Positions 8,272 through 27,946 are shown, counted from the first letter of the stretch. The stretch: 64,000 nt of DNA from an uncultured Myxococcaceae bacterium (GCA_966211675.1 CBIHPK010000002.1:8209-72208), one strand, 5' to 3'. Notes: generated by a model from the sequence alone, not told the origin. Made by a program: numbers and translations.

Positions 8272-10230
8272 TCAGCGACGACGGCGGCGCAGCCCGACGA
8301 TCGCCGCCGCGGCCAGCAGCGCCCACCCCTTCGAGGGCGCGGGGCCTCCGGGCGTCCGGCACCCGCAGTTGGGGTCCGTCGAGTCGATGAAGAGGTCCGC
8401 GTCCATCGTCCCGGTGTCGGTCACCGCCGGGGCGTCCAGCCTCGGGACGTCCGCGCGGGCGTCGGCGACCTGCGCGTCGCGCACCGAGGCGTCGACCACC
8501 CCGGCGTCCATCCGAGGGGCGCGCACGCACTGACCCGCGTTGCAGAGCGAGTCGCTCGGGCAGGTGACGTTGGCGCAGAGGTCCGCCACGCAGCGGCCCG
8601 AGTCCGAGGCGCAGCGCGACCCGAGCGGGCAGGTCACCCCCGCGCAGTGGGACACGCAGCGCGGCAGCGCCCCGCTGCAGTCGAGGGTCGCGCCCGCGCC
8701 GCAGGTGAGCGCGTCGCAGCCCGCCGCGCCGCAGCGCCCGCTGCTCGCGGAGCACACCGTCTCCCCGGTGCACGCGACGCAGGGGCAGTTGGCCACGCAT
8801 CGCCCCGCCTCGCAGTGCTGCTGACCCGGGCACATCACCCCGGAGCAGGCGTCGATGCACGCTCCGCCCCGGCAGACCTGGCCCAGGGGGCAGCGCGCCC
8901 CGGCGCACGGGTCCTGGCAGCCGGTGGGGCCGCACACCTGGCCGGCGGGGCACACGACGCTGGCGCAGGGCGTGGGGAGGCAGTAGGTGACGCCCCCGTC
9001 GGCGTTGACGCAGGTCTGCCCCGTGGGGCACGCGCCCTCCACGCACTGCGGCGCGCAGAGGCCGCTCACGCAGGTGGTGTTGGACGGACACCCGGCGGAG
9101 ACCCCGTCGCAGTTGACGTCGCGCCTCGTGGCGCAGGTCTCGATGGCGGCGGGGTTCACCGCCGGGTCGCGGTCGTTGCAGTCGTTGCCGCCGCAGTTGG
9201 CGTCGCGGAAGCCGTCGGCGTCGGCGTCGGGGCAGATGCCGGTGTCGTCCTCGTTGAGCCCCGCGACCGCGTCGAGCTCCGCGTCGAAGGACCAGAACGA
9301 GCACGCCGGGCTGGGGTTTCCGTTGTTGCCGGCGATCAGCGACGCGTAGCGGAAGGTGAGCCCGCAGGGCAGCGAGAAGACCTGCACGATGCCGTCGCGC
9401 TGCGTGGGGTTGGAGAGGTTGGGGTTGAGCCCGGGGCCCACGGCCTCGCCGCCGGTGGCCGCGTCGGGGATCCACCCCTGGAGGAAGGCGCGGGTGAGCA
9501 CCGCGGGGTTCCATCGGGCGCCGTCGGGGTGGCCGGGGGTGGCGATCTCCGTGGCGTCGGGGTCGTTGGAGAGCCACACGCTGTACTCGAAGGACTCGCA
9601 CGGCAGCGGCGCGTGGTCGGTGTAGGGGAAGACCGCGACCCGGTTGCCTTCGCCGCCGAGGTCGAAGATCGCGCCGTCCTGCGGGAGGAAGCGCGCCTGC
9701 TCGCCGTCGCACACCCGCTCGCCGTCCGTGTGACCGGGCACCCCTGCGTAGAAGCGATCGATCTCGCCGATGTAGCAGTCGAGGTTGTTGAAGGTGTCTT
9801 CGTAGGTGTGGTTCCAGCCGAAGTGGTACTCGGCGTCGGTGGCGAAGGCCGGTCGGGGACCTCCAGCGGGAGCGCAGTACCCGTCGGGCGCGCCGCTGCC
9901 GGAGAAGAGCCAGCCCGACCCGCCGTAGCCGCGGTTGACCGCGCGCTGGATGTCCGACGAGGAGGTCGACACGCCGCGGATGAGCCGGGCGAAGCGCAGC
10001 CGCCTCGCGTCGCGCCCGTCGCTGGTCTGGAACACCCCGTCCCTCCGCTCCGCCACCGGCAGCGAGTCGAAGCAGGCCGTGCCGTTGTTGACGCACTGGC
10101 CGCAGGCCGCGTTCGGGGCGGCGCTGCTGCACGAGGTGCAGGTGCCCATCACCGGCTGCGCGCTCGCCACCGCGGACCCGAGAAGCGCGCACCCCAACAC
10201 CGCCGCCCACGAAGCCTTCCGCCACCGCAT
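8272..10230 (-). CDS. secreted Cys-rich protein with MopE-like putative metal-binding motif and MYXO-CTERM sorting tail
   Basis: Signal peptide MRWRKASWAAVLGCALLGSAVASA (start moved to ATG 10230). A DADADGFRDANCGGNDCNDRDPAVNPAAIETC..VNCDG motif is present. About 10 C..(V/A)xCPxGQxC repeats follow. The C-terminus NCGCRTPGG..WALLAAAAIVGLRRRRR fits MYXO-CTERM. Confidence 0.85.
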   Translation of the reverse strand: MRWRKASWAAVLGCALLGSAVASAQPVMGTCTSCSSAAPNAACGQCVNNGTACFDSLPVAERRDGVFQTSDGRDARRLRFARLIRGVSTSSSDIQRAVNRGYGGSGWLFSGSGAPDGYCAPAGGPRPAFATDAEYHFGWNHTYEDTFNNLDCYIGEIDRFYAGVPGHTDGERVCDGEQARFLPQDGAIFDLGGEGNRVAVFPYTDHAPLPCESFEYSVWLSNDPDATEIATPGHPDGARWNPAVLTRAFLQGWIPDAATGGEAVGPGLNPNLSNPTQRDGIVQVFSLPCGLTFRYASLIAGNNGNPSPACSFWSFDAELDAVAGLNEDDTGICPDADADGFRDANCGGNDCNDRDPAVNPAAIETCATRRDVNCDGVSAGCPSNTTCVSGLCAPQCVEGACPTGQTCVNADGGVTYCLPTPCASVVCPAGQVCGPTGCQDPCAGARCPLGQVCRGGACIDACSGVMCPGQQHCEAGRCVANCPCVACTGETVCSASSGRCGAAGCDALTCGAGATLDCSGALPRCVSHCAGVTCPLGSRCASDSGRCVADLCANVTCPSDSLCNAGQCVRAPRMDAGVVDASVRDAQVADARADVPRLDAPAVTDTGTMDADLFIDSTDPNCGCRTPGGPAPSKGWALLAAAAIVGLRRRRR

Positions 10231-10361
10231 GGCCGGTACGCTCACACGCGCTCACGAGGCGTGGCAAGGCGTGGCCCGGCGTGCGGCCCCGACTCCGCCG
10301 GGCGGAGCCTTGACCCGACCGCCGCTCCCCCGCTCTCATCCGCGGCAGACCTTTGACCCCC

Positions 10362-12449
10362 ATGCGATCCACCCTCCGGCTCTCCCTCTTCGCCCTCGCC
10401 GCCGTCGCCTCGCTCCCCGCCTGCACCGAGAGCGCCGCGGACCCTCCCCGCGACGCCGCGGTCGCCACCGACGCGCACGGCCACGACGTCGGCGACCTGG
10501 GCTCGCTCATCGTCGACAGCGGCCCCCTTCCCGACGACGACGCCGGCGTCGCGGCCGCGCTCCCCGAAGGGGACTGCGACCCCATCGACCCGAGCGCGTG
10601 CGCGCTCCCGTGGCCCTCGAACCTCTACCTCCGCCGCGACGCCTCGCGCCGCACCGGCTACTCGCTCACCTTCGGCCCCACCTCGCTGCCCGCCAACGGC
10701 GCCCTCGACCCGATGGACCCGCGGCCCCTCCGGCGCTTCGACGGCTACGGCCTCGGCTCGCCCGTCATGACGAGCTTCCCCAACCTCGACCTCGCCGCCA
10801 TGGCCACCGAGGAGCACCAGGATCGCTCCATGGCCGCCGACGCCGCCGCGCTCCTCTACGAGGTGCAGGGCAATACCCTCCAGCGTATTCCGTACTTCGT
10901 CGAGCTCGACTCGCAGGAGCCCATGGTGGCGAGGAAGATCCTCTTCCTGCGGCCCGGGGTGATCCTGAAGGAGAACACCCGCTACGTGGTGGCCTTCCGC
11001 AACCTGCGCACCACGGCGGGCGCGGCCATCGAGCCCTCACCCGCCTTCGCCAGGCTGCGCGCCGGGACCACCGCGGGCGACCCGGCGCTCGGCCCTCGCC
11101 AGGCGCGCTTCGACGAGGTGTTCGCGCTGCTGCAGGGCGCCGGGGTCGAGCGCTCGTCGCTCACGCTCGCGTGGGACTTCCACACGGCCAGCTCCGAGAG
11201 CCTGCACGGCCGGCTGCTGGCCATGCGAGACGACGCCCTGATGCGCGTGGGCCCGTCGGGTCCTCGGCTCGCGGTGGACAACGTGACGACCTTCCTGCCG
11301 ATGCGCGACAGCAGCGGCCGACCCTACGACGACAACATCGCGATCGAGCTCTCCGGCACCTTCGAGGTGCCCCACTACCTGCACCCCCGCCGCCTCGGGA
11401 GCCAGCCCGGCTGGGAGATGAACTACGACGCCAGCGGCCGCCCGGTCGCCAACGGAACCCGCCAGCCGCGCTTCTGGATCCGCATTCCCCACTCGGCCCT
11501 TCGCGGCGAAGCGCACGGCCTGGTGATGTACGGCCACGGGCTGCTGGGCTCCGCGGAGGAGGTGCGCGCCGGCTACAACGGCCACATCGCCAACACGCAC
11601 AACCTCATCTTCTTCGCGGCCAACCTCACCGGCATGTCCGAGGAGGACCTCTCCGGCGTCTTCGCCACGCTGCGCGACGCCTCGTACTTCACCTCCGTGG
11701 GCGAGCGCCTGCACCAGGGCATGACCGAGTGGGTGCTGCTCGCTCGCGCCATGCGGGAGCAGATCGCCGGGCTCGCGGAGGTGGCCTCGCGCAACATCCG
11801 GATCAACCCCTCCGAGCTCTACTACTCGGGCATCTCGCAGGGCGGCATCTTCGGCGGCACCTTCGTCGCCGTCTCGCCGGACGTGACCCGAGGGCACCTG
11901 GGCGTCCCGGGCAACAACTACTTCACCCTGCTGCACCGCTCGCGAGACTTCACCGGCTACTTCGAGGGCCTGCGCCGCAACTACCCCGGCACCGCCGACC
12001 AGGCCATCGGCCTCGCGTACGTGCAGCTGCTCTGGGACGGCACCGACCCGGTGAGCTACCTGCGGCACATCCACCAGGAGCCCTTCCCCGGCAACTCGCC
12101 CCACGAGGTGCTGCTCGCTCCCGCCAAGGGGGACTTCGAGGTCGCCGTGTTCACCAACGAGATCACCGCGCGCTCGGGCCTCGGCGTCGCGCTGATGCAG
12201 AACTACGACAGCCAGCGCACGCCCTTCGGCATCACCCAGGACCCTTATCCCCGGCGAGGATCGGGCGTGGTGCTCTACGACTTCGGCAACCAGTGGCCCC
12301 CGCCCGGCAACCTCCCTCCGCCGGAGGTGGGCACCAACCCCCACGGGCAGCCGCGCACTCGCGAGTGGCACCAGCGTCAGATGGTGACCTTCTTCCGCAC
12401 CGGCGAGATCATCGACACCTGCGGCGGCGACGGCTGCCGGCCCGATTGA
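10362..12449 (+). CDS. lipoprotein, putative alpha/beta-hydrolase-like (function unknown)
   Basis: Signal and lipobox MRSTLRLSLFALAAVASLPAC (start moved from TTG 10353 to ATG 10362). It has a nucleophile-elbow-like YYSGISQGGIFGG and strong GC3 bias throughout. I recognise no other named domain. Confidence 0.7.
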   Translation: MRSTLRLSLFALAAVASLPACTESAADPPRDAAVATDAHGHDVGDLGSLIVDSGPLPDDDAGVAAALPEGDCDPIDPSACALPWPSNLYLRRDASRRTGYSLTFGPTSLPANGALDPMDPRPLRRFDGYGLGSPVMTSFPNLDLAAMATEEHQDRSMAADAAALLYEVQGNTLQRIPYFVELDSQEPMVARKILFLRPGVILKENTRYVVAFRNLRTTAGAAIEPSPAFARLRAGTTAGDPALGPRQARFDEVFALLQGAGVERSSLTLAWDFHTASSESLHGRLLAMRDDALMRVGPSGPRLAVDNVTTFLPMRDSSGRPYDDNIAIELSGTFEVPHYLHPRRLGSQPGWEMNYDASGRPVANGTRQPRFWIRIPHSALRGEAHGLVMYGHGLLGSAEEVRAGYNGHIANTHNLIFFAANLTGMSEEDLSGVFATLRDASYFTSVGERLHQGMTEWVLLARAMREQIAGLAEVASRNIRINPSELYYSGISQGGIFGGTFVAVSPDVTRGHLGVPGNNYFTLLHRSRDFTGYFEGLRRNYPGTADQAIGLAYVQLLWDGTDPVSYLRHIHQEPFPGNSPHEVLLAPAKGDFEVAVFTNEITARSGLGVALMQNYDSQRTPFGITQDPYPRRGSGVVLYDFGNQWPPPGNLPPPEVGTNPHGQPRTREWHQRQMVTFFRTGEIIDTCGGDGCRPD

Positions 12450-13181: not shown

Positions 13182-13703
13182 ATGACCACGCAGATCACCG
13201 GATTGGCCATCGCCCTCCTTCTCACGGCCGGCGCCTGCAAGCGTCGCGACGAGGCTACCGCGCCTCCGACGCCCACGGTGGTCCCGACGGTCGTGCCGCC
13301 CGCCGCGCCCGACGTCCCGATGCAGCCCGTGACGGTGGTGGACGCAGGGCCCACGCAGCCCGGTCCCAACGCCATGGCGCAGCCCGGCACCGTCGCCCCC
13401 GCGGCTCCTGCTCCTGCGGCCGGTGGGCTCGCTCCCGGCGCCGCCCCTCCGACCGGCGCTCCGCCCGCCGCGCCCATCGCCGCCGCGCCCGCAGCTCCAG
13501 CGGCGCCCGCGGCACCGGCCTCGCCCACGGCTCCCACGGCGCCGACCACCGCGCGACCCGGCACTGCCGCCAACCCCGGTCACACGGAGATCCGCATCCC
13601 CGGCGTGACCAACCAGCCGCCCATCAACATCGACCAGAACAACGGGCAGACCCGGGTCAACGTCGGCGGCGTGCAGATCGTGATCCCGGGCGCGACGCGG
13701 TAG
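13182..13703 (+). CDS. Pro/Ala-rich lipoprotein (hypothetical)
   Basis: Signal plus lipobox LLLTAGAC, a long low-complexity P/A/T region and a short structured C-terminus (EIRIPGVTNQPPINIDQNNGQTRVNVGGVQIVIPG). Confidence 0.55.
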   Translation: MTTQITGLAIALLLTAGACKRRDEATAPPTPTVVPTVVPPAAPDVPMQPVTVVDAGPTQPGPNAMAQPGTVAPAAPAPAAGGLAPGAAPPTGAPPAAPIAAAPAAPAAPAAPASPTAPTAPTTARPGTAANPGHTEIRIPGVTNQPPINIDQNNGQTRVNVGGVQIVIPGATR

Positions 13704-13707
13704 CCCG

Positions 13708-14244
13708 TTACGGGTCCGGCGGGCGGAGCATCGGGCTGATCACTCCGTCGTAGCTGCGGGCATCCTGGGTGCCGTGGCAGGTGTTGCAGCCGACGCCCTC
13801 GCCGGTCTCGTAGGGGTCTTCGAGCCCGGTGCGGGGGTTGAGCCCGCGGGCGATGATCACCACCCGGCCCTGCGCGTCGAGCCGCAGCCGGAAGAACTCC
13901 CAGCCCACGTTGCCCCGGGCGTTGTAGGTCCCGCCGCGCTTCACCGAGGCGAAGATCTGCCACTCCGTCGGGGCGCCCCGCTCCCGCGTTCGGATGATGA
14001 TGGTCCCGGTGTCGTAGAGGCGCGATCCCTCGCGGCGGGGACGGTTGATGTACGCGTACTGCTGCGGTCCTTCGAGGTGGCCCCCGGAGGAGAAGCGCCC
14101 CAGGTGGGTGCGGGGCCAGCGCTGGAAGCCCTCGAAGTCCCGGGTGAAGGCGATGAAGCCCGGCGGACCGGCGTCGGCGTGGTGCGATCGGCCGCCCCGG
14201 CAGGACGCCACGAGCAGCGCCGCGATCAGCGCCGCCCGTCGCAC
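13708..14244 (-). CDS. cytochrome P460-like haem lipoprotein
   Basis: GTG start with lipobox LLVASC. A single CxxCH (GCNTCHG) lies near the C-terminus. The upstream pattern YAYIN.., YDTGTIIIRT, KRGG..GNVGWEFFRL resembles the P460 fold family. Confidence 0.65.
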   Translation of the reverse strand: MRRAALIAALLVASCRGGRSHHADAGPPGFIAFTRDFEGFQRWPRTHLGRFSSGGHLEGPQQYAYINRPRREGSRLYDTGTIIIRTRERGAPTEWQIFASVKRGGTYNARGNVGWEFFRLRLDAQGRVVIIARGLNPRTGLEDPYETGEGVGCNTCHGTQDARSYDGVISPMLRPPDP

Positions 14245-14245
14245 C

Positions 14246-15739
14246 TCAGAACGCGCCCGACGAGGGGAACATCCGGGTGCAGCGCTCGCGCACCGCGGGC
14301 TCGATGGTCCCGGCGGGCGGCAGCGTCGGCGGGGTCATGAAGGGGGGACTGGCGAAGTCGAACAGGTCCGTCGGGATGCTCGCGTTGGCGTCGCGGCGGG
14401 TGAGCGCGGGCAGGCCGAAGCGGGCCTCGATGAAGCGCAGGATGGAGGTGTGATCGAAGGTGCGGTGCGACACGAAATGCCGCCGCGCATAGGGCGACAC
14501 GACCATGAAGGGGACGCGCACCCCGTAGCGGTCGAAGCGCCCGGCGGCGGGCATGCCGTTGATGCGCGGGGTGAGCTCGTCGGGCTCGCACGCGGGCGGA
14601 GGCGCGACGTGGTCGGCGAAGCCGCCGTGCTCGTCGTAGGTGATGAAGAGCGCGCTGCGCGCCCAGAGGGGCGAGGCCATCAGCGAGCGGACGATGCGCT
14701 CGACGTAGCGCTCGCCGTTCATGGGGATGCCCGGCGGGTGCTCGTCGACGCGCTCGCCGCCGTCGCCCACGTAGTTGGGCTCGACGATGGTGACCGCGGG
14801 GAGGGTGCCGGCGGCGAGGTCGCGGTGCAGGTCGTCGATGGTGCCGTAGTGCTCTCGCGTCGCCGCGCGGAGGATGCCGTAGTACGAGAAGAACCCGAGC
14901 ATGCGAGGGCCGCCCGCGTAGTCCTTCCAGGTGATGCCCGCGTCGTCGAGGCGGCTGAAGAGGTGGCTCACGGGCGTGTTGCGCGTGTCCTGCGAGACCA
15001 GGGTATTGTGCGCGAGCCCGAAGGAGGTGGCCGCCATCAGGTAGATGCGGTTGGGACCCGTCGGGCCGAGCAGCGAGCTGAAGTAGCGGTCGCCGATCGC
15101 GAAGGTGGTCGCGAGCGAGTAGTAGAAGGGCAGGTCGGTCTGGTCGAAGTAGGTGAGGGCCCGCTCGCCGAGGGGGTTGTTGGCCACCACGAAGCCGTCC
15201 ATGTGGCCGTCGTTGTACTCGCGGTGCGTGGGGTTCCAGCCGTGCTGGACGTCGGTGATGCAGCGCTCGGTGTCGCGGTGGAAGCGCACCGGCGTGCCGT
15301 CCGCGGCGGGGTTGGTCCAGTCGTCCGGGGCCACGTCCACGTCCGTCTGGCCCGCCTCCGGCAGCTTGCGGAAGTAGTGGTCGAAGGAGCGGTTCTCCTG
15401 CATCACCACGATGATGTGATCGATCGGCATCTGGTCGCCGACGGGCACCTCGCGCCCGAGGGTCTCCGCGGCCCACGCGCCCGTCCGGAAGGTGCACGCC
15501 AGGCGCCGCGCGGCGAGGGCCTCGTCGGTCTCCGTGCGGGCGATCTCCGGCGGGCGGAGGTAGTCCGGCGGCGGCGCGTCGACGGGCTCCTTCACCACGT
15601 CGACCGAGGCGTCGAAGACCGGGGCGTCGACCACCGGAGAGGCGTCGACCGCCGCGTCCGCGGGGGTGGCGGCCGGCTCGTCGGTACAGCCCAGGAGGAG
15701 CGCCGGGATCACCAGGGCAAGGCTTCGCGTGAGCGCCAT
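14246..15739 (-). CDS. phosphoesterase family lipoprotein (non-haemolytic phospholipase C / acid phosphatase AcpA type)
   Basis: The IDHIIVVMQENRSFDHYF motif is diagnostic of the PLC/AcpA phosphoesterase family. Start is moved to the internal Met giving MALTRSLALVIPALLLGC (lipobox). Confidence 0.85.
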   Translation of the reverse strand: MALTRSLALVIPALLLGCTDEPAATPADAAVDASPVVDAPVFDASVDVVKEPVDAPPPDYLRPPEIARTETDEALAARRLACTFRTGAWAAETLGREVPVGDQMPIDHIIVVMQENRSFDHYFRKLPEAGQTDVDVAPDDWTNPAADGTPVRFHRDTERCITDVQHGWNPTHREYNDGHMDGFVVANNPLGERALTYFDQTDLPFYYSLATTFAIGDRYFSSLLGPTGPNRIYLMAATSFGLAHNTLVSQDTRNTPVSHLFSRLDDAGITWKDYAGGPRMLGFFSYYGILRAATREHYGTIDDLHRDLAAGTLPAVTIVEPNYVGDGGERVDEHPPGIPMNGERYVERIVRSLMASPLWARSALFITYDEHGGFADHVAPPPACEPDELTPRINGMPAAGRFDRYGVRVPFMVVSPYARRHFVSHRTFDHTSILRFIEARFGLPALTRRDANASIPTDLFDFASPPFMTPPTLPPAGTIEPAVRERCTRMFPSSGAF

Positions 15740-15812
15740 AGGGCCGCGAACATAACAGACTGCCGCGTGCCGTTTGGGTGACAGCCGACGGCGGGCCTGC
15801 GCTCCGATGGGG

Positions 15813-16847
15813 TCAGCGCACCTCGACACCGATCGCCTGCCCGGCGCGCACCATCATGGCCGCGAGCGAGCCCTCTCGATCGGGGTCCGATTCCCCGGCG
15901 AGGTAGGTGTGCAGCGCCCCATAGGGCGTGGCGCGCTGCGCCCCGGTGATGGCGTCGGGGTCCCAGCCCGCGGGGACCTCCGGCAGCGAGTCGCTCGGCA
16001 GCGCCGCGTACATCGCCTGGATGCGCGCGAGGCGACGGTCGATCGCCCCCGCCATCGCCTCGTGCCCGGCCTCGCTCAGCCACGGCCGGAAGAAGCCGAA
16101 GAGCACCCGACCGCCTTCGAGGTTGGCGCGCATGTCCGCGAGCGTACGGCCCGCGTAGCGCGACTCCTCCTCGGCGGTGGCCGCGAGGTCGACCTTCTCG
16201 TGCTGCTCGCGCACCGACGCGACCACGCCCCGGTAGGCCGCCGCGGGGTCGAGCGCCAGCGGGGCGAAGGCGCGCCGCATCGCCGCCACGTCGTCGATCA
16301 TCCGCTGCACCAGGGCGTCCCGGAAGCCCGCGGCCTGCCGGGCGTCGGTGGGGAAGGACGGCTCCACGTAGACGCTCCCCTCCCGCAGCGACGCCTCGAA
16401 GGCCCGCACCTCGGGCCGCACCCGATCGGCCCACAGAATCCGCTCGATGGCGTGCATCCCGGTGACCCCGTCACCATCGAAGGGATCGCGGTCGGGATCC
16501 GCCTCGGCGAAGCCCTCGTAGCGCGCGTCGATGGCCACGTCCGTCTCCGGGAAGAGCACCGTGATGGCCGCCTCGATGTGCTCGTAGGCGTCGCGCATCC
16601 GACCCCACGAGGCGCGCATCGCCCGCACCGCGTCCGGGTCCGAGGCTGCGCTCCAGCCGTCGGCGTCGGGCGCCGGGGCGGCGCGCTGCAGCTCGCGCGT
16701 GGCGTCTTCGAGCACGGCCATCTCGCGCTCGAGGTAGGCCTTCACGTCGAGCGTCACCCGCTGCGACGGAGGCAGCCTCGCGGTCTCGCCTCCGCCGAGC
16801 GAGACCAGCCAGAGCGCGATCCAGGCGTACGCCGCCGCTCGCCTCAT
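15813..16847 (-). CDS. imelysin-like (peptidase M75 / EfeM-IrpA family) periplasmic metal-binding protein
   Basis: Has a signal peptide and GVTGMHAIERILWAD, the typical imelysin G.H.iE..LW motif. Its ATG overlaps the stop of the upstream gene (ATGA at 16844-16847). Confidence 0.8.
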   Translation of the reverse strand: MRRAAAYAWIALWLVSLGGGETARLPPSQRVTLDVKAYLEREMAVLEDATRELQRAAPAPDADGWSAASDPDAVRAMRASWGRMRDAYEHIEAAITVLFPETDVAIDARYEGFAEADPDRDPFDGDGVTGMHAIERILWADRVRPEVRAFEASLREGSVYVEPSFPTDARQAAGFRDALVQRMIDDVAAMRRAFAPLALDPAAAYRGVVASVREQHEKVDLAATAEEESRYAGRTLADMRANLEGGRVLFGFFRPWLSEAGHEAMAGAIDRRLARIQAMYAALPSDSLPEVPAGWDPDAITGAQRATPYGALHTYLAGESDPDREGSLAAMMVRAGQAIGVEVR

Positions 16848-18022
16848 AGCCGTCGTACGAAGTCCAGCAGCGCCGACCGCTCCGCGGGGCTCATCGCCTC
16901 GAAGCGCCTCGCCGCAACAGAGCCTTCGCCGCCGTGCAGCCGGATCGCCTCCTCGACGGAGCGGGCCCTTCCGTCATGGAGGAAGCTGCGGAAGAACCTC
17001 ATCCCCAGCAGCGGCGCCGTCCGCCATTCTCGCTCCGTGGCGAGGCCCTCTCCGGCGATGCCGTCGGCCAGGCCGTCGCCCATGTCGTGCAGCAGGAGGT
17101 CGGAGTAGAGCGCCGCCTCTCGCCCGGCCATCGCGGCCACCGGGAAGTCCGCGCGCGTGGCCATCGAGGGCACATGGCAGGCCGAGCAGCCCGCCTCGTC
17201 GAAGCGCCGCCGTCCGTCCGCCGTGAGCCCGTTGCGCGCCGGGATCGCGAGGCGTCGCACATAGGCCGCCGTCGCCCTCACCACGTCGTCGGTGAGGTCG
17301 ACCCCGGGGCGCAGGTCGTCGGTGAGCCCGTCGGGGTTTGGAACCTCCCTGGGCACCCGAGGCGAGGTGAGCCCCATGTCCCCCTGGAAGGCCTCCGCGG
17401 AGAAGGTGTCGAGGTCGGGCACCCGCGCCTTCACGCCGAGCCGCCCGATGCGCCCGTCGGCGAGGCGGTTGGCGCGTCCGCTCACTGCGCTGCCTGCGGT
17501 CGATTGACGGGCCTCCTCGGCGAGGATGGCCTCGTCGGAGACGGCCTCGATCCAGCCCCGGCCGAAGACCGCGGGGCCCACCCGCAGCGACAGCAGCAGC
17601 CGCTCGGGGGACTCGACGCGCGGAGGGGTCACGCCTTGCGTGGCGCCCGCGGCGCGCTGCGGTCGGGCGGTATTTCCGTAGGGGAGGCGGTGGGCGAGGT
17701 CGGCCCGCGGGCTCGCTCCGTCGTCCGCCACGAAGGCCATGCGGGTGACGCTCCCGGGGCCTCGTCCTCCGGCGCCATGGCACGCGCGGCAGCTCGACTG
17801 GATGAACACCGGGCCGATCCCCTGCGACGGGCGGAACACCTTCTCGAAGAGCCGGTCGCCCTCGGCGAAGGCTCGCAGGTCCGCCTCCGTGGCGCCCGCG
17901 ACGGGCTGGTCCGAGGGGTCCTCGCGGACGACCGTGAGCCCGGTGGTCTCGCTGCGGGCGCCGCACGAGGCCGCGAGCGCGAGGGTCAGCGAGAGCAGGG
18001 CGGAGGGGAGCCGCGAGGTCAC
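16844..18022 (-). CDS. di-haem cytochrome c peroxidase-like lipoprotein (DUF1111 family)
   Basis: Lipobox LALAASC. Two CxxCH motifs (SSCRACHG, AGCSACHV) are spaced as in DUF1111 proteins. Pairing with an imelysin gene is classic for this family. Confidence 0.8.
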   Translation of the reverse strand: MTSRLPSALLSLTLALAASCGARSETTGLTVVREDPSDQPVAGATEADLRAFAEGDRLFEKVFRPSQGIGPVFIQSSCRACHGAGGRGPGSVTRMAFVADDGASPRADLAHRLPYGNTARPQRAAGATQGVTPPRVESPERLLLSLRVGPAVFGRGWIEAVSDEAILAEEARQSTAGSAVSGRANRLADGRIGRLGVKARVPDLDTFSAEAFQGDMGLTSPRVPREVPNPDGLTDDLRPGVDLTDDVVRATAAYVRRLAIPARNGLTADGRRRFDEAGCSACHVPSMATRADFPVAAMAGREAALYSDLLLHDMGDGLADGIAGEGLATEREWRTAPLLGMRFFRSFLHDGRARSVEEAIRLHGGEGSVAARRFEAMSPAERSALLDFVRRL

Positions 18023-18025
18023 CGA

Positions 18026-19156
18026 TCAGCCCGCGTCGTAGGCCGCCCGGTAGCGGTTGACCATCCTCGCCTCGAAGCGCTCCCGGTCGACGCCCAGCGC
18101 CTCTCGGATCGCCCCCGTGCGCAGCGCCGGCCGGTCTCGCGCCGCCACGTCGTCGGCGTATCGCTCCACGCCCCCGGCGGCCGCGCGGTGGAAGCCCGCG
18201 ATGGCCCGCAGGAAGCCCTGCACCGTCGGCGCCGCGAGGTGGCTCTGCACCAGCGCCGCGAGCGCCGCCCCTCGGCCCCCGAGGTCGCCCCCCGGAGCGT
18301 CGTCGTCGAGCGAGGGGTGCCTCGCCACGACCTCGCCCCACGCGTCGAAGAAGGGACCGATCCCCAGCAGCAGGTCGCGGTGCACCCTCAACGAGCGCGC
18401 CGCGCGCATCCCGAGGAAGCGCGGGTTCTCCGCGGCCATCGCCCGCTTGTAGATGCGCCCCGCGAGCGCGAAGCGGGGGTCCCCTTCGGTCTCGTGGCCG
18501 AGCTTCGCGTAGCGCCGCCGCACCGAGAGCGCCGTCGGGGACTTCACCGGCCAGGTCTCCACCACCCGGGAGAGGTCGCCCAGGTTGTGGGCGATGGTGG
18601 CCACCACCTCCATGGCCTTGATCTCCTGGCCCTTGGCCCGATGCACGGCCGCGAAGGCTTGCGCGTGGCGCTCCAGCGAGGCGTCGAGGAAGGCGGTCTG
18701 CGCGTCGGCGGTGGCGTCGTCGTCGAGGGCCAGCGCGCGGCCGAGGGCCCCGGCGCGCACGCCCAACCACTCGCCGTCGTGGCCCGAGAGGGGCCCCACG
18801 CCGGGCACGGTCACCACGCGAGCGGAGACCTCCGAAGGGTCCCAGGAGGCGGTCTCCTCCAGCACGGCGGCGGCGGCGCGCAGCTCGGCGACGGTCTCGC
18901 AGCGCTGCCAGGCGTGGAAGCGGATGTGGCTGTCCACGTCCGTCGGGACGAAGGTCGCCACCGTCGCGTGGTGCGCCGCCAGCAGCAGCCGCAGGTAGGC
19001 CCCCTCGCCGTCGTGCCCGTGGGGGATCTCCGTCGCCGACACCAGCGCCCTGCGCCACGAGAAGGCGGCCCCCTCGGTGGGGCCGTCGAGCGCCCACGCG
19101 GCGGTGTTGCGGACCTGCGTCGAGACCAGCGAAGGCTTCACTCCACGAAACTTCAT
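18026..19156 (-). CDS. uncharacterised cytoplasmic protein (376 aa) coupled to pqqE
   Basis: ATG start 6 nt after the pqqE stop, with its own stop 3 nt before the next start. No signal peptide and no motif I can name. His/Glu-rich helical-looking sequence (EIPHGHDGEG, LLLAAHHATV, SHIRFHAW). Confidence 0.7.
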   Translation of the reverse strand: MKFRGVKPSLVSTQVRNTAAWALDGPTEGAAFSWRRALVSATEIPHGHDGEGAYLRLLLAAHHATVATFVPTDVDSHIRFHAWQRCETVAELRAAAAVLEETASWDPSEVSARVVTVPGVGPLSGHDGEWLGVRAGALGRALALDDDATADAQTAFLDASLERHAQAFAAVHRAKGQEIKAMEVVATIAHNLGDLSRVVETWPVKSPTALSVRRRYAKLGHETEGDPRFALAGRIYKRAMAAENPRFLGMRAARSLRVHRDLLLGIGPFFDAWGEVVARHPSLDDDAPGGDLGGRGAALAALVQSHLAAPTVQGFLRAIAGFHRAAAGGVERYADDVAARDRPALRTGAIREALGVDRERFEARMVNRYRAAYDAG

Positions 19157-19162
19157 CGCCGC

Positions 19163-20260
19163 TCAGGATGCGCGACGGCCGCGTCGGATGTCGATGCGGT
19201 AGAGGCCATCGGATACTTCGGCGACCGGGCGCTCCCGGCGGAGGGACGCCACGAGGGCGTGGTCGGGGCTCTTCGGGCACGCCGGGTCGGTGCGCGAGGC
19301 GTCGCCGGTGAGGGCGAAGGCCTGGCAGCGGCAGCCGCCGAAGTCGACCTCGCGGCGGTCGCAGGAGGCGCAGGTCGGGGACATCCAAGCGGTGCCGCGG
19401 TAGCGCTGGAAGTCCGCGCCGTCGCGCCAGATGTCCCCGAGGGGGCGGGAGCGAACGCTGTCCAATACCATCCCGGGTAATCCGTGGGCGCCGGGGCAGG
19501 GGAGCGCCGTGCCGTCGGGGATCACCGTCATGAAGCGCCGCCCCCAGCCGTCCATGCAGGGCTTCGGCGCGTCCTCGTACCAGTCCGGGATCACCCAGAT
19601 CACGTCCATGGTCCCCCGAAGCCGCGCCCTCTCGGCGAGGGCGATGGACTGCGCCCGGCGGAGCGTCTCGCGGTCCGGCAGGAGCGCGTCGCGGTGCACG
19701 AGCGCGCTGCCGTGCCACTGGGTGTTAGCGAGCTCCAGCCGCTGCGCTCCCAGCGACTCGGAGAGGGCGATGATCTCCCCGACGGATCGCAGGTTCTGCC
19801 GGTGGAGCACGGCGTTGATGGAGAGCGCCATCCCGAGCGGCCTCACCCATCGCGCGGCCTCCAGCTTGTGCTCGTGGACGGTCGTCCCCGCGAGGCGGTC
19901 GGCTCGATCGGCGTCGCTGTCCTGCAGGCTCACCTGCACGTGGTCGAGGCCCGCGTCGGCGAGCGAGGCGAGGCGGTCGTGGGTCAACCGCCAGGCCGAG
20001 GTGATGAGGTTGGTGTAGAGCCCGTGCTCCCGGGCGGCGCGCACCAGGGTCTCCAGGTCGTCGCGGAGCAGCGGCTCTCCCCCGGAGAAGTGGACGTGCA
20101 GCACGCCGAGCTCCCCGGCCTCGCGCAGCACCCGGGTCCACCCGGCGGTGTCGAGCTCGTCTCCGTAGTCGCGCCAGTCGGTGGGGTTGGAGCAGTACGA
20201 GCAGCGCAAGGGGCAGCGGTAGGTGAGCTCCGCGAGCAGCGCGACCGGGGGCTCGATCAT
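19163..20260 (-). CDS. pqqE: PQQ biosynthesis radical SAM/SPASM enzyme PqqE (PqqA peptide cyclase)
   Basis: Full-length resemblance to canonical PqqE: LLAELTYRCPLRCSYCSNP (CX3CX2C), FSGGEPLLR, YTNLITS, AGLDHVQVSLQ, PKPCMDGWG, GTALPC and SCDRREVDFGGCRCQAFALTGDASRTDPACPKSP. Confidence 0.9.
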   Translation of the reverse strand: MIEPPVALLAELTYRCPLRCSYCSNPTDWRDYGDELDTAGWTRVLREAGELGVLHVHFSGGEPLLRDDLETLVRAAREHGLYTNLITSAWRLTHDRLASLADAGLDHVQVSLQDSDADRADRLAGTTVHEHKLEAARWVRPLGMALSINAVLHRQNLRSVGEIIALSESLGAQRLELANTQWHGSALVHRDALLPDRETLRRAQSIALAERARLRGTMDVIWVIPDWYEDAPKPCMDGWGRRFMTVIPDGTALPCPGAHGLPGMVLDSVRSRPLGDIWRDGADFQRYRGTAWMSPTCASCDRREVDFGGCRCQAFALTGDASRTDPACPKSPDHALVASLRRERPVAEVSDGLYRIDIRRGRRAS

Positions 20261-20565
20261 GGTCCCTCCAGGGTGACGTAGCCGCGCTCGATGAGGCGCT
20301 GGAGGTACTCGCGCACGTCGGCGTCGATGAGCTCGCGGGGGGCCTCCGGGTGCGCCTCGGCCACCGCGTCGATGACCGCCGCGAGCGAGCGCTGCCCGTC
20401 GAGCAGCGCGGTGATCTCCGCGCCCTCCTCGGTGAGCGCCAGCACCCCTTCGGGGACCACCACCACGTGGCGAGAGCGCGCCGCGTCCCAGCGCAGCCGG
20501 GCCCGCCTCGCGAGCACCGGCCGTCGCGCCGAGCTGAGCTCATCCTTCGGGAGGGCGTCGGTCAT
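20257..20565 (-). CDS. pqqD: PqqD (peptide chaperone / RiPP recognition element)
   Basis: 103 aa from the internal ATG. LRWDAARSRHVVVVPEGVLALTEEGAEITALLDGQRSLAAVIDAV...EYLQRLIERGYV matches the PqqD pattern. Its stop overlaps the pqqE ATG (ATGA). The longer listed ORF (to 20730) would overlap the divergent kinase gene. Confidence 0.85.
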   Translation of the reverse strand: MTDALPKDELSSARRPVLARRARLRWDAARSRHVVVVPEGVLALTEEGAEITALLDGQRSLAAVIDAVAEAHPEAPRELIDADVREYLQRLIERGYVTLEGP

Positions 20566-20653
20566 GGCGGGGGCACCGTAGCGCACCCTCCGGCGCCTCG
20601 CCGCAGGGGAAGCGCCCTGCACCGCCCCGCGCAGATCGCGTACCGTCGCGCCG

Positions 20654-22123
20654 GTGACGACGTCATGGCGATCGGGGCTCAACGGCCGGGCGCTCCAGGC
20701 CGCGCTCGTGGCGGCGCTGCTCCCCTCCACGGCGGCGCTCTACTCCGCGCGCTCGTCGCTCCGCGCTCCGCCCGAAGCGCTCGCCGAGGCCCGCGTCGCC
20801 CGCGCCGAGGCGGACGCCCACGCCCGCGACGCGCAGGACCTCTCGGCGACGGCGCTGGCCCTCCGCCTCGCGGCCTCCGCCTCGCTGGACGACGCCTCGG
20901 TGGCCTCCGCGGCGGCGGGCCTCGGCGCGGTGCGAAGCGTCGAGCTGCTCAGCCCGAGCGGCGCGGTGCTCGCCCGCTCGCCTCGGTCCGCGGGCCCTCC
21001 GGGGCGCTGTCCTCCGAGGGTGCTCTCCAGGCCGGTGCGCCCGGGGGTGAGCGCGGTGATCACCGTCGACGACGAGGGCTGCGCGAGGCCTCCGTCCACG
21101 CCTCCGCGAGACCCGCTGGCGGGGGTGCTCGGGCCCACGCTGGCCGCGGCGGCGCTGGGGGTGATGGCGGCTCTGGCGATGCTGCGGTCGAGGCGCAGCG
21201 GGGCCGCCGAGGCGCTGATCACCGCGGCGGGGAAGGTCGGCCACGGGGACCTCGGGGTGAGGGTTCCGGCGGGCGAGCGGGGGGAGCTGGAGGCGCTGCG
21301 GGTGGCCTTCAACGAGATGGTCGCGGAGCTGTCCCTCTCTCGGGCGAGGGTGGACTACCTCCAGCGCATCGCCGGGTGGCAGGAGCTCGCCCGGCGTCTC
21401 GCTCACGAGATCAAGAACCCCCTCACGCCCATCCAGCTCGCGGTGCAGGAGGCGACGCGGAGGTACCCGGGCGACGACGCGGGCTACAAGCGGACGCTCG
21501 AGACCACGCGCGAGATCGTCGAGGAGGAGGTGGCCACGCTCCGCCGGCTGGTGAGCGCCTTCTCGGAGTTCGCCCGGCTGCCGGACGTGAAGCCCGCCCC
21601 GGCGGACCTCGCGGAGTTCGTGCGCGACATGGCGAGCTCGCGGGCGCTGCTCGACGAGCTCGACCCGGGGGTGACCGTGCGCTTCGAGCCGGGCGACGCG
21701 GAGGTGCCCGTGAGGCTCGACCGGATCATGTTCCGCCGCGCGGTGGAGAACCTGCTGCGCAACGCAGTGGAGGCGATGGCCTCCACCGGGGGAACGGTCT
21801 GGGTGCGCGTGGAGTCCCGCGAGGTGAGCGAGCCCGACGCGGCGGAGCCCTCGGCCCAGGCGTGGCTGGTGGTCGAGGACGACGGCCCGGGCATCCCTGC
21901 CGCACAGCGCGACAAGGTCTTCGATCCGTACTTCACCACCAAGGCCACGGGCACCGGCCTGGGCCTGGCCATCGTGCGCAAGATCGCCCTCGACCACGAC
22001 GGCGACGTGGGCCTCGAGCAGCGCCCCGGCGGGGGCACGCGCTTCGTGCTGACGCTGCCCAGGACGGCGGCCGGGCGGCCTCCGCGGCGCTCCTTCGTGA
22101 CCTTCTCTTCGCGCCTTTCCTGA
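20654..22123 (+). CDS. membrane sensor histidine kinase (HAMP-HisKA-HATPase, NtrY-like); no cognate response regulator adjacent
   Basis: Two TM segments, a HAMP region (GDLGVRVPAGERGELEALRVAFNEMV), H-box LAHEIKNPLTPI, N-box LLRNAVEA, G1 DDGPGI and G2 GTGLGLAIV. Confidence 0.85.
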   Translation: MTTSWRSGLNGRALQAALVAALLPSTAALYSARSSLRAPPEALAEARVARAEADAHARDAQDLSATALALRLAASASLDDASVASAAAGLGAVRSVELLSPSGAVLARSPRSAGPPGRCPPRVLSRPVRPGVSAVITVDDEGCARPPSTPPRDPLAGVLGPTLAAAALGVMAALAMLRSRRSGAAEALITAAGKVGHGDLGVRVPAGERGELEALRVAFNEMVAELSLSRARVDYLQRIAGWQELARRLAHEIKNPLTPIQLAVQEATRRYPGDDAGYKRTLETTREIVEEEVATLRRLVSAFSEFARLPDVKPAPADLAEFVRDMASSRALLDELDPGVTVRFEPGDAEVPVRLDRIMFRRAVENLLRNAVEAMASTGGTVWVRVESREVSEPDAAEPSAQAWLVVEDDGPGIPAAQRDKVFDPYFTTKATGTGLGLAIVRKIALDHDGDVGLEQRPGGGTRFVLTLPRTAAGRPPRRSFVTFSSRLS

Positions 22124-22963: not shown

Positions 22964-23767
22964 ATGGCTGTTTCACTCCAAGGGTTCGCGCTGGTCCTCG
23001 GCGCATCGAGCGGCATTGGCGCGGCCACGGCGCGCGCCCTCGCCAGGGCGGGCATGGACATCATCGGCGTGCACCTCGACCGCCGCGCCACGCTGCCGCT
23101 GGCCGACGCGGTGCGCGCGGACATCGAGGCCGCCGGGCGCACGGCGTGGTTCTTCAACGTCAACGCGGCGGACGACGCGAAGCGCCGCGCGGTGCTCGCC
23201 GACGTGGCCGCGAGGCTGGAGGCGAGGGGCCAGGGCGAGACCGTGCGGGTGCTGCTGCACTCGCTGGCCTTCGGCTCGCTGCGCCCGCTGGTCGGAGGCG
23301 ACAGCGACGAGACGCTCACCCGGCTGCAGATCGAGATGACCCTCGACGTGATGGCGACCTCCCTCGTCTACTGGACGCAGGACCTCCTCGCCATGGGCGC
23401 CCTCCGCCCGCACGGCCGGGTCTTCGCGATGACCAGCGGCGGCAGCACGCAGGCGCTGCCCTCCTACGGGGCCGTCGGGGCGGCGAAGGCGGCGCTGGAG
23501 TCCTACGTGCGACAGCTCGCCGTGGAGGGCGCGGCGCGGGGGTTCACCGCGAACGCCATCTGCGCCGGGGTGACCCGCACGCCCGCGCTGGAGCGCATCC
23601 CGGGCCACGAGCTGCTGGTCGAGCGAGCGCTCGCGAAGCACCCGCAGGGGAGGCTCACGACCCCGGAGGACGTGGCCAGCTGCATCGCGGCGCTGTCGGT
23701 CCCGGAGACCGACTGGATGAACGGCAACGTGGTGCGGGTGGACGGGGGCGAGGGGGCCGCGGGCTGA
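22964..23767 (+). CDS. SDR family oxidoreductase (enoyl-ACP reductase FabL-like)
   Basis: GASSGIGAATARAL (TGxxxGxG-type), YGAVGAAKAALE (YxxxK) and a C-terminal NGNVVRVDGG. A good SD (GAGAGGGGGA) lies upstream of the ATG. Confidence 0.85.
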   Translation: MAVSLQGFALVLGASSGIGAATARALARAGMDIIGVHLDRRATLPLADAVRADIEAAGRTAWFFNVNAADDAKRRAVLADVAARLEARGQGETVRVLLHSLAFGSLRPLVGGDSDETLTRLQIEMTLDVMATSLVYWTQDLLAMGALRPHGRVFAMTSGGSTQALPSYGAVGAAKAALESYVRQLAVEGAARGFTANAICAGVTRTPALERIPGHELLVERALAKHPQGRLTTPEDVASCIAALSVPETDWMNGNVVRVDGGEGAAG

Positions 23768-23788
23768 CGGCCTGCGGGCGAAGCCGTC

Positions 23789-23804
23789 CATGACAATGGT
23801 CATG
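23789..23804. promoter_or_regulatory. candidate Crp/Fnr (NnrR/Dnr-type) operator upstream of nirK
   Basis: Perfect palindrome CATGAC-AATG-GTCATG (6-4-6). Its core TGAC-N4-GTCA resembles FNR/NNR boxes (TTGAY-N4-RTCAA). The centre is ~110 nt upstream of the nirK ATG, and a Crp/Fnr gene lies in the same cluster. Confidence 0.35.
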
Positions 23805-23906
23805 AGCGGTCCCGCCCCCGCTGCCTTCGCTCACCGGCGCAAAAGCAGCGCTACGGATGCGCCAGAGAGCGGACCTATGTCTGGCTCTGAAGGAGCCAGA
23901 TGATCC

Positions 23907-25520
23907 ATGCGCCAACCGAACGAGCTCACCGCCACCACCCGAGGGGCCTCACGGGCGAAAGCCCCCGACGCCGCCCCGCCCCGCCCTCGCGCCCCGCGCG
24001 GTGACCGGGGGGCTCTGACGAGGTCCCGCCTCTCGACGCTCTCGCTCTCCCTCGCGCTCTGTCTCGGGGCCTGTGTCCCGCCCCCCTCGCAGCCCGCGTC
24101 CCCGACCCCATCCGCCTCGCCGTCCCCGTCGACCTCGGGCGTCCGCGCCCCGACGCCGCTCTCGCCGCTCACCCGCGCCGAGGAGGCCGCGCTTCCGAGC
24201 ATCGAGCTGAACCTCGTCCGCCCGCCCGCGGTGCCCCCGCCGGTCAACCGCCGCACCGCCGCCAAGGTGGTGGTGCACCTCGAGGTGCGCGAGCTCACGA
24301 TGCCCCTCGCCGACGGCGCGACCTACACCTTCTGGACCTTCGGCGGCTCGGTGCCGGGCCCGATGATCCGCGTGCGCCGCGGTGACATCGTGGAACTCCA
24401 CCTGATGAACCACCCGTCCAGCACGATGCCCCACAACATCGACCTGCACGCGGTCACCGGCCCCGGCGGCGGCGCGGCGAGCACCTTCACGGCGCCCGGC
24501 CACCAGACGCAGTTCACCTTCCGCGCGCTCAACGAGGGCCTGTACGTCTACCACTGCGCCACCGCGCCGGTGGGCATGCACATGGCCAACGGCATGTACG
24601 GGATGATCGCCGTCGAGCCCGAGGAGGGGTGGGCCGCCGCCGACCGCGAGTACTACCTGATGCAGGGTGAGATCTACACCACGGGCAACTACCGCGAGCC
24701 CGGACTGCAGCCCTTCGACATGCGCCGCGCCATCAACGAGGACCCCGCCTACGTGGTCTTCAACGGCCGCGACGGGGCGCTCACGGGCACCAACGCCCTC
24801 ACCGCCCGCGTCGGCGAGCGCGTGCGCCTCTTCGTCGGCAACGGCGGACCCAACCTGGTGAGCTCCTTCCACGTGATCGGCGAGATCTTCGACCACGTCT
24901 TCCCCGAAGGCGGCTCGCACGCCAACACCAACGTGCAGACCACCGTCGTGCCCGCCGGGGGCTCGGCCATCGTCGACTTCGGCCTCGAGGTGCCGGGCAG
25001 CTTCGTGCTCGTCGACCACTCGATCTTCCGCACCTTCCACAAGGGCACCCTCGGGATGCTCCGCGTCGAGGGCCCGGAGGACCACGTGATCTACTCCGGC
25101 CGCGAGGTCGACCAGGCCTACCTCGGCGACTACGCCCCGCAGGCCGCCTCCGGCAGCGACGGCGCCGCCCTCCAGCCCGGTGAGCAGACCTTCCTCGGGG
25201 TGTGCTCGGCCTGCCACCAGCGCTCCGCCGCGGGCCTGCCGCCGGTGTTCCCGCCGCTCGCGGGCAGCGACTACCTCATGGCCGACAAGACCCGCTCCAT
25301 CCGCGGCGTGCTCGCGGGCCAGAGCGGCCCGATGACCGTCAACGGCACGGTCTACAACGGCGCCATGCCGCCGCTCGCGAACCTCACGGACCACGAGGTC
25401 GCCGACGTGCTCACCTACGTGCGCAGCCACTTCGGCAACCACGGGGACGCCGTGACCGTCGCCGAGGTCGCCGCGGTGCGCGCCTCGCTCGTCACTCCGA
25501 CGCCTGCGGGGCACCCGTGA
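23907..25520 (+). CDS. nirK: copper-containing nitrite reductase NirK, lipoprotein form with C-terminal cytochrome c domain
   Basis: SD AAGGAG lies 11 nt upstream. Lipobox LCLGAC is followed by a Pro/Ser linker. Cu ligands are [12 protein letters not shown] and [20 protein letters not shown]. The C-terminal CSACHQ..GAMPP is a class I cytochrome c module. Confidence 0.9.
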
Positions 25521-26320
25521 TCGCCTCCGCGCGCTGGTCCGCCGCGCTGCTCGCCGGGCTCGTCGCCACGGCGTCGGCGTGGGGCCAGCGCGCGCCCCGG
25601 GTGGCGCCCGACCTCCGCGTGATCCGCGGCGGCGAGTACCAGCCCTTCTACCGCCTCGCGGCCCGTCCCCGGGTCACCGTGCGCTCCTTCGCGCTCGACG
25701 TCCGGCCGGTCACCAACGAGCGCTTCCTCGCGTTCGTTCAGGCCAACCCCGCGTGGCAGCGCTCCCGCGTCCGCCGCCTCTTCGCCGACGCGGACTACCT
25801 CGCCCACTGGGCCGGCGACGCCGCGCTCGGGCCCGACGCTCGACCCGCCCAGCCGGTCACCCGCGTGTCGTGGTTCGCCGCGCGCGCCTTCTGCCGAGCC
25901 CAGGGCCGGCGCCTCCCCACCGAGGCCGAGTGGGAGTACGTCGCCCGCGCCTCGGCCACCTCGCCCAACGCGCCGAGCGACCCGGTCACCACCGCGCGCA
26001 TCCTCGCCTGGTACGGCCACCCCAACGCCGCCCTCGCGGACGTCGGCGCCTCTCGCCCCGACTACTGGGGTCTGCAGGACCTGCACGGCCTCGTGTGGGA
26101 GTGGGTCGAGGACTTCAACTCGGCCCTGGTGGTCACCGACAGCCGCGACAACCAGGGCCCCGGCGCGGGGCGCTTCTGCGGCGCGGCGAGCGCCGGCGCG
26201 CGCGACGTCGGAGACTACGTGGCGTTCATGCGCTACGCGTTCCGCCAGAGCCTGCGGGGCTCGTACACGGTGCGAAACCTGGGGTTCCGCTGCGCGTCCG
26301 ACCTCCCACCCGGAGAATGA
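25517..26320 (+). CDS. nirV: formylglycine-generating-enzyme (SUMF1) family protein, NirV-like
   Basis: The GTG start overlaps the nirK stop (GTGA). Motifs: signal peptide, [37 protein letters not shown] and GFRCA. Confidence 0.8.
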
Positions 26321-26321
26321 C

Positions 26322-27889: not shown

Positions 27890-27946
27890 GCGCGCTCTCC
27901 CGACTCGCCTCGCCGGTGGCACCAACCTCGCAGTGGGACGAGGAAC

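Follow-up and report, generated by a model that had tools for sequence, protein, structure and literature searches.

A probably rearranged pyrroloquinoline quinone biosynthesis operon with an apparent in-place deletion of pqqC in an uncultured member of the Polyangia

The 64-kb stretch of DNA analysed here (64,000 nt of contig CBIHPK010000002.1 in assembly GCA_966211675.1, positions 8209-72208; hereafter the window, numbered from its first letter) carries on its minus strand, between 13708 and 20565, a run of seven genes that opens with pqqD and pqqE of pyrroloquinoline quinone (PQQ) biosynthesis. In order of transcription, pqqD (20257-20565) is joined by an ATGA overlap to pqqE (19163-20260), which is followed after 6 nt by the gene of a 376-aa protein (open reading frame ORF376; 18026-19156) and, after a further 3 nt, by a gene encoding a di-haem oxidoreductase (DHOR; 16844-18022). 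The latter overlaps by a second ATGA with a gene for an imelysin-like (EfeO-like) protein (15813-16847); after 73 nt comes the gene of a PLC/AcpA family phosphoesterase (14246-15739), and 1 nt beyond it the last gene of the run, encoding a 178-aa CxxCH protein (c178; 13708-14244). Gene calls place all seven where the initial annotation had described a same-strand run almost without spacers, and its junction lengths hold except for the gap between the imelysin and phosphoesterase genes, which it had given as 74 nt. Its distance of 88 nt between pqqD and the start of a divergent kinase gene is also correct. The same gene order with an identical ORF376 protein occurs on metagenome contigs ERZ27336867 and ERZ27336870 of ENA and SRR18156207 and SRR18156208 of Logan. 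The G+C content of the window is 72-76%, and scans for promoters and terminators returned 0 sites, a result that is uninformative in such high-G+C DNA.

Both PqqD and PqqE scored above the NCBIfam equivalog cut-offs over their full length. PqqD reached 71.3 bits with TIGR03859 (cut-off 46) and also matched PF05402, and PqqE reached 478.6 bits with TIGR02109 (cut-off 381.35), with residues 2-355 of 365 aligned. PqqE additionally matched PF04055 and PF13186, carries the radical SAM motif CxxxCxxC as CPLRCSYC at residues 16-23, and retains the C-terminal Cys-rich block with the SPASM cysteines, so that all its Fe-S cysteines are intact. The proposal that this is a full-length textbook PqqE and not a generic SPASM enzyme is borne out by the TIGR02109 score, the mycofactocin and GeoRSP maturase models giving only 102-106 bits. 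In PQQ synthesis, PqqE acts with PqqD to cross-link Glu and Tyr of the peptide PqqA, and a protease, PqqB, and PqqC act afterwards (PMC10906245). Orthologues of the window PqqE with 61-88% identity belong to clusters of the form pqqC-D-E or pqqA-B|(C)-D-E that share a syntenic backbone. Because the orthologous loci in relatives carry confirmed pqqA, pqqB, and pqqC genes, the window pqqD and pqqE are vertically inherited genes of the PQQ pathway.

These relatives were found by scanning GTDB species genomes with an alignment of ORF376, which gave 78 loci, all from metagenome-assembled genomes (MAGs) and labelled mostly as Myxococcota, Polyangia, or delta-proteobacteria, with a few Gammaproteobacteria; their arrangements were determined from gene maps and tblastn of the seven window proteins against the loci. 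Three of them (L005, L006, and L094, with ORF376 92% identical to that of the window) are arranged as in the window. The order pqqC-pqqD-pqqE-ORF376 was found in L007-L012 (ORF376 identity 69-89%) and L181-L186. At greater distance, L013, L015, and L025 (60-65%) have pqqA-pqqB divergent from pqqC-pqqD-pqqE, followed by an opposite-strand gene and ORF376, and L017 and L018 (54-55%) have pqqA-pqqB divergent from pqqD-pqqE-ORF376; a pqqC relic was looked for in these last two loci and none was found. The backbone in the sister lineages consists of the kinase gene, pqqC-pqqD-pqqE-ORF376, a 162-aa gene, and a 690-aa gene. The pqq genes of the relatives are well identified, with PqqC scoring 297-313 bits on TIGR02111 (cut-off 240), PqqB 350-357 bits on TIGR02108 (cut-off 245), and PqqA ending in the pattern ...W-T-K/R-P-D-F-x-E-x-x-x-C-A-E-I-G-A-Y-A-F (minus-strand genes at L013 6405-6539, L015 6490-6624, L017 7317-7466, L018 8312-8458, and L025 799-933). 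At 44-49 aa, the PqqA proteins of these Polyangia MAGs far exceed the classical peptides of roughly 23-29 aa, and a long, basic leader at the N-terminus precedes their core from W-T-K/R-P-D-F to C-A-E-I-G-A-Y-A-F.

In the nearest relatives that bear pqqC, pqqA-pqqB is already unlinked from pqqCDE, and in MAG GCA_016792845 two unrelated genes lie between pqqC-pqqD and pqqE, with ORF376 on a separate contig. Because of these two observations, scattered pqq genes appear to be normal in this clade. Further variants were seen in L085, where a fused PqqD-PqqE protein of 448 aa (10765-12111) is followed by YceI, and in L088 (10749-14726), where 586-aa and 232-aa genes with unassigned functions separate pqqC-pqqD from pqqE.

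Comparison of the window with L009 and L181 by blastn synteny showed collinearity for about 36 kb, interrupted at the start of the pqq genes by a deletion junction on the minus strand, where about 99 nt of the window (20529-20628) correspond to 738 nt in L009 (7884-8622) that include all of pqqC. DNA alignment and translations show that the first residues of the window PqqD, MTDALPKDE, are homologous to those of PqqC in L181 and L009, MTDLLSQDEF, and the sequence upstream of the two starts is shared as well. What is retained from pqqC is the ribosome-binding region, the start codon, and about nine codons (roughly 20536-20565), which now form the N-terminus of PqqD; beyond this relic about 690 nt are missing, and homology picks up at about codon 3 of pqqD (ARRPVLARRARLRWDAA). 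In L005, L006, and L094 the relic persists as a 10-codon reading frame (MTEPFSKVDP*), a leader coupled to pqqD, whose TGA overlaps the GTG of pqqD exactly as the pqqC stop codon does in L181. A further small indel in the window fuses the relic in frame with pqqD. The deletion appears to be common to the window, L005, L006, and L094 and older than their split (synonymous divergence dS of about 0.2-0.3). The lack of pqqC at this site is thus the outcome of a recent in-place deletion of about 0.7 kb with a recognisable relic. The opposite polarity, a gain of pqqC by insertion in the sister lineages, was considered and rejected, as outgroups L011-L015 and L025 have pqqC and the window keeps its 5' relic.

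The other difference within this region lies behind ORF376, where window 18030-13691 is matched in L009 by only 24 nt (11127-11151; blastn synteny). The additional 4.34 kb (13691-18030) comprise exactly the genes DHOR-imelysin-phosphoesterase-c178, placed between the ORF376 stop codon and the next backbone gene (the 162-aa gene in L009). DHOR matched PF06537 with 164.3 bits (cut-off 22, E = 4.7e-48) and has two CxxCH motifs, CRACH and CSACH; it is a di-haem oxidoreductase of the DUF1111 type and probably a lipoprotein. The imelysin-like protein matched PF09375 (69.9 bits, cut-off 23.5, E = 3.6e-19), with a weak match to the EfeO equivalog model that did not reach its cut-off (60 vs 270 bits). 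The phosphoesterase matched PF04185 (269.8 bits, E = 5e-80) and stayed below the equivalog cut-offs of TIGR03396 for phosphocholine-specific PLC (215 vs 580 bits) and of TIGR03397 for AcpA (107 vs 363 bits). The product of c178 has a single C-terminal haem-binding motif, CNTCH. These four proteins had been described as periplasmic lipoproteins, which fits DHOR, the phosphoesterase, and c178, all with a lipobox-like Cys, and does not fit the imelysin-like protein, whose signal peptide lacks the lipobox Cys and which is thus predicted to be periplasmic without being a lipoprotein. The description of c178 as cytochrome P460-like is unsupported, with CNTCH alone in common: the protein had no Pfam match at E <= 1, its best PDB sequence match was at E = 0.99, and Foldseek found no P460 fold with an AlphaFold2 (AF2) model that was itself poor (mean predicted local distance difference test, pLDDT, 53.5). 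The c178 family is very narrow, with 10 clusters at 59-91% identity among 5.8 billion proteins, and its gene directly follows that of the phosphoesterase with a 1-nt gap both in the window (13708-14244) and in L187 (2783-3325). Directly 3' of the c178 stop codon, L006 has a G+C-rich, nearly perfect hairpin of about 48 nt (15447-15500); the window has no such hairpin, and 4 nt separate there the stop codons of c178 and of a convergent 173-aa gene.

The block stands behind ORF376 only in the window lineage (L001, L005, L006, and L094), in which ORF376 is at least 92% identical. A conserved pqqD-pqqE-ORF376-DHOR-imelysin order in other Myxococcota, as raised in the initial annotation, is consequently limited to these close relatives. 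The block seems to have resided elsewhere and then moved behind ORF376, because MAG JBGARZ01, whose pqqCDE-ORF376 locus is L011, holds imelysin-phosphoesterase-c178 genes with 74-79% identity at the end of a different contig. As the pqqC deletion and the block insertion are both lineage events on a conserved backbone, the association of the haem/metal genes with pqqDE is a lineage-specific accident. The 3-nt gap between ORF376 and DHOR is too short for a promoter; therefore, judging from this spacing, transcripts that cover DHOR and imelysin would have to start at the pqq promoter or within ORF376.

The selection acting on these genes was estimated as the ratio of nonsynonymous to synonymous divergence (dN/dS; Nei-Gojobori), using comparisons of the window with L006 and L094 that fall wholly after the pqqC deletion (dS about 0.2-0.3). 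The ratio was 0.28 for pqqD (0.27-0.44 in pqqC-bearing pairs), 0.23-0.25 for pqqE (0.17-0.23 in pqqC-bearing pairs), and 0.18-0.19 for ORF376 (0.11-0.24 in pqqC-bearing pairs). The four inserted genes gave 0.18-0.27, and the neighbouring genes likewise 0.18-0.27. These values point to purifying selection on pqqD and pqqE, with no sign of relaxed constraint after the loss of pqqC, and the products of both genes are evidently still needed. Because they remain under purifying selection, the data suggest that the pathway still works with its remaining genes located elsewhere.

None of these remaining genes was detected in the 64-kb window, in agreement with the initial annotation. The best tblastn match of PqqB and PqqC from close relatives to the window had E = 0.027, and for PqqA neither tblastn nor a motif scan picked up anything but low-complexity noise; the same motif scan does recover the PqqA of five related loci. 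The other genes of the window have ordinary chromosomal functions, and Pfam scans of them revealed no metallo-beta-lactamase, TENA, or PQQ-enzyme domain. No new precursor reading frame lies beside pqqD, and the 88-nt and 73-nt gaps, the only larger ones of the locus, contain nothing plausible.

The protein encoded by ORF376 had been left without assignment to a family, and this remains so, with no Pfam or NCBIfam match even at E <= 1, no PDB match, and no result from a PDB profile search. AF2 predicts an all-alpha structure with high confidence (pLDDT 92.5), and the best Foldseek match of this model to the PDB, at E = 0.5, amounts to no fold match; Pfam scans of longer family members for fused domains also gave nothing. 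The protein has no signal peptide, and it is conserved and cytoplasmic. A search of 1.84 billion cluster representatives yielded 453 members of the family at E <= 1e-3, and a word-indexed search gave about 980 matches, those shown with a named organism belonging to Myxococcales, Polyangiales, or Sandaracinaceae; from this distribution, the family is likely to be widespread and specific to Polyangia. Invariant columns include H62, D75, H81, H126, E129, H190, D194, E243, and D271 together with nine Arg, which suggests an enzyme with an anionic ligand. ORF376 stands behind pqqE in 13 of the 78 loci, all in one subclade, often after a 6-nt gap and with ORF376 identities of 54-92%, and the same order recurs on many metagenome contigs. 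The other 65 loci lack pqq genes within 10 kb and show no recurring neighbour. ORF376 is the last gene of the ancestral pqqCDE-ORF376 unit and may play a part in PQQ synthesis, though this is weakly supported.

The locus is probably a rearranged PQQ-biosynthesis operon of an uncultured member of the Polyangia (Myxococcota), in which PqqD and PqqE are canonical and the rest of the pathway is encoded elsewhere. The ancestral unit consisted of the kinase gene and pqqC-pqqD-pqqE-ORF376, with pqqA-pqqB divergent upstream, as in the distant relatives, or at another site, as in the nearest ones. On the window organism's branch, a deletion of about 0.7 kb took out pqqC and left its relic, and the 4.3-kb DHOR-imelysin-phosphoesterase-c178 block landed directly after the ORF376 stop codon. 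PqqD would then bind PqqA and PqqE would form the Glu-Tyr cross-link as in canonical PQQ synthesis, with pqqA, pqqB, and pqqC function supplied from other sites in the genome. The periplasmic genes would owe their read-through from the pqq promoter to the place where they happened to land and would make no use of the PqqDE product. Of the two readings offered in the initial annotation, this agrees with part of the first: a split pqq regulon is the better fit, given the scattered pqq genes of the clade and the unlinked pqqA-pqqB of the nearest relatives. The accompanying idea that pqqDE expression is tied to a periplasmic redox module lacks a conserved basis, as the block is restricted to relatives with ORF376 at least 92% identical and lies on another contig in JBGARZ01. 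Several points weigh against a rearranged operon whose other genes lie elsewhere. The co-transcription that it assumes is drawn from gene spacing only, and the Pfam scans found no PQQ-dependent enzyme encoded within the 64 kb. In addition, a relocated pqqC was sought in vain, by indirect routes only (a homologue search, contig look-ups, and a metagenome scan). The homologue search with the nearest PqqC listed relatives down to about 57% identity; the nine clade PqqC whose contigs were inspected are all encoded beside pqqD, in samples other than those of the window organism. Among the matches listed for JGI metagenome contigs, likewise, none that bore a prefix of the samples behind a sister 173-kb contig was a close PqqC, and these samples possibly lie outside that collection. 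This failure to find a relocated pqqC is absence of evidence only.

The same observations could mean that the loss of pqqC ended PQQ synthesis and that pqqD and pqqE are non-functional leftovers in an organism that scavenges PQQ or dispenses with it. The in-place deletion, the lack of a relocated pqqC among close homologues, and the lack of PQQ enzymes in the window would all agree with such decay, and since reading frames persist by chance in DNA of 73-75% G+C, the intactness of the two genes says little by itself. However, neutral drift would bring dN/dS towards 1, and the post-deletion values (0.28 for pqqD and 0.23-0.25 for pqqE) resemble those of constrained neighbours and of pqqC-bearing lineages; the complete set of Fe-S cysteines and a PqqE equivalog score well over its cut-off also speak against decay, which is therefore considered unlikely. 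It is less likely still that pqqC has been wholly lost while PqqDE has an output independent of PqqC, with ORF376 finishing or diverting the pathway or the cross-linked peptide being used itself. The second reading of the initial annotation went further and had PqqDE, perhaps together with ORF376, recruited to make another cross-linked peptide or a PQQ-related molecule, possibly used by the haem/metal proteins. Purifying selection on pqqDE and ORF376 without an adjacent pqqC is compatible with this, as is the probable expression with pqqDE of an inserted block that has no room for a promoter of its own, and a second lineage (L017 and L018) also has pqqDE-ORF376 with no pqqC nearby. That second lineage, however, keeps canonical pqqA-pqqB beside pqqDE, the orthologues of the window genes belong to pqqC-D-E or pqqA-B|C-D-E clusters, and the window itself holds a pqqC relic and no new precursor reading frame next to pqqD. 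Moreover, the evolution of PqqE is not accelerated, the periplasmic block occupies this position in one shallow lineage only and another position in a sister genome, and the haem proteins are exported, with nothing to tie them to a cytoplasmic product of the class of ribosomally synthesized and post-translationally modified peptides (RiPPs). Such a recruitment is accordingly regarded as very unlikely.

A proposal that is compatible with the rearranged operon, and to which a low probability is also assigned, concerns ORF376 as an undescribed accessory protein of PQQ synthesis, for example a peptidase that processes PqqA, a carrier, or a PqqC-like finisher. It draws on the position behind pqqE in 13 species loci, often at 6 nt, and on similar metagenome contigs, on the invariant His, Asp, Glu, and Arg columns, and on the absence of a PqqF/G-type protease from the gene calls wherever a locus had its gene table read. 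On the other hand, 65 of the 78 loci have no pqq gene within 10 kb of ORF376, GCA_016792845 carries ORF376 and pqqC-D..E on separate contigs, other genes intervene in L011, L013, and L015, and the protein resembles no enzyme in sequence or fold. Had the original framing held, with an undescribed PqqDE system supplying haem/metal lipoproteins with a cofactor or peptide, the discovery would have been notable; the evidence speaks instead for operon remodelling, in which a scarred gene deletion was accompanied by a block insertion that would hijack the transcription of the operon, and it cautions that functional coupling is not implied by tight gene spacing. Two leads follow from the locus. This lineage keeps pqqDE under selection after an in-place deletion of pqqC, which may reflect a second pqqC or something else, and ORF376 combines a confident predicted fold that has no known match with a recurrent, though not universal, place after pqqE.

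No paper on pqq genes in Myxococcota was found in a literature search. The locus resembles the canonical pqqABCDE(F) operons of Klebsiella and Methylorubrum (PMC10906245) in its equivalog-level, ATGA-coupled PqqD and PqqE and in the pqqA, pqqB, and pqqC genes carried by the orthologous locus of its relatives. It differs from them in that pqqC is deleted to a relic of about 10 codons, pqqA and pqqB are not within the 64 kb, ORF376 is an extra gene after pqqE, and the PqqA leaders of the clade are unusually long and basic (44-49 aa proteins). In Methylophilaceae, extra pqqDE copies with pqqA lie on a genomic island (PMC4109929), which shows that a genome able to make PQQ can carry pqqDE away from pqqABC; those copies are divergent and laterally acquired, whereas the window pqqDE is vertically inherited and became separated by deletion. 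Systems that pair a PqqD-like RiPP recognition element (RRE) with a radical SAM/SPASM enzyme, such as mycofactocin, GeoRSP, and SCIFF, share the combination of RRE chaperone and enzyme with the window. Here, in contrast, the pair has no adjacent precursor gene and no neighbourhood conserved across lineages, and PqqE reaches 478 bits on the PqqE model compared with 102-106 bits on the models for maturases of mycofactocin and GeoRSP. The adjacent DHOR and imelysin genes, overlapping here by ATGA, recall the imelysin and DUF1111 modules in the contexts drawn in PMC3143127. Unlike these, the window pair has no EfeU/Ftr1 permease nearby, shares its block with the genes of a PLC/AcpA-type phosphoesterase and a small mono-haem lipoprotein, and stands behind pqq genes owing to a recent insertion.

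The seven genes are flanked by conserved backbone genes. Upstream, the divergent gene (20654-22123, plus strand) encodes a HAMP/HisKA sensor histidine kinase according to its Pfam matches and is syntenic with L009 and L181. Downstream, the convergent gene at 13182-13703 (plus strand) encodes a 173-aa Pro/Ala-rich lipoprotein with 60% identity to L181 and L009 (tblastn); its counterpart in the sister lineages is convergent and directly follows ORF376. Next to it, a 698-aa lipoprotein gene (10353-12449, plus strand) is 87-90% identical in L009, L181, and L094; its product had no match in Pfam or NCBIfam. The same gene (11761-13872 in L009) neighbours the pqq locus in many relatives, with 58-90% identity.

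Beyond the block behind ORF376, three further blocks are gained in the window lineage relative to its sister, of 0.66 kb (a 214-aa gene), 8.7 kb (23767-32496), and 5.4 kb (357-5736). The second of these takes the place of about 0.9 kb in L009 and L181, and its first 6 kb or so encode a NirK-like multicopper oxidase that includes a cytochrome c domain, a NirV-like protein of the FGE-sulfatase family, and SCO1/SenC, as well as a 311-aa protein of unknown function, a Crp-family regulator, and a radical SAM protein. From this content it appears to be a second lineage-specific insertion, a periplasmic copper/redox module near the pqq locus. Towards its end, between 29900 and 32500, strong third-position G+C periodicity with several frame changes makes simple gene calls unreliable, and the reading frame at 30409-32544 (minus strand) had no Pfam match. 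The 5.4-kb insertion relative to L009 encodes a lipoprotein of about 1759 aa that combines FG-GAP repeats with a Cys-rich region weakly resembling STIG1. At 8272-10245 (minus strand), where blastn detects no homology to L009 DNA, lies the gene of a 657-aa lipoprotein that carries a copper-binding motif of the MopE type (PF11617). Unrelated to the pqq genes, the window also encodes a large DUF3160 protein (50268-52532, minus strand; E = 1e-116) and a protein of the Porphyromonas-type peptidyl-arginine deiminase/agmatine deiminase family (53712-54776, plus strand; PF04371, E = 9e-107).

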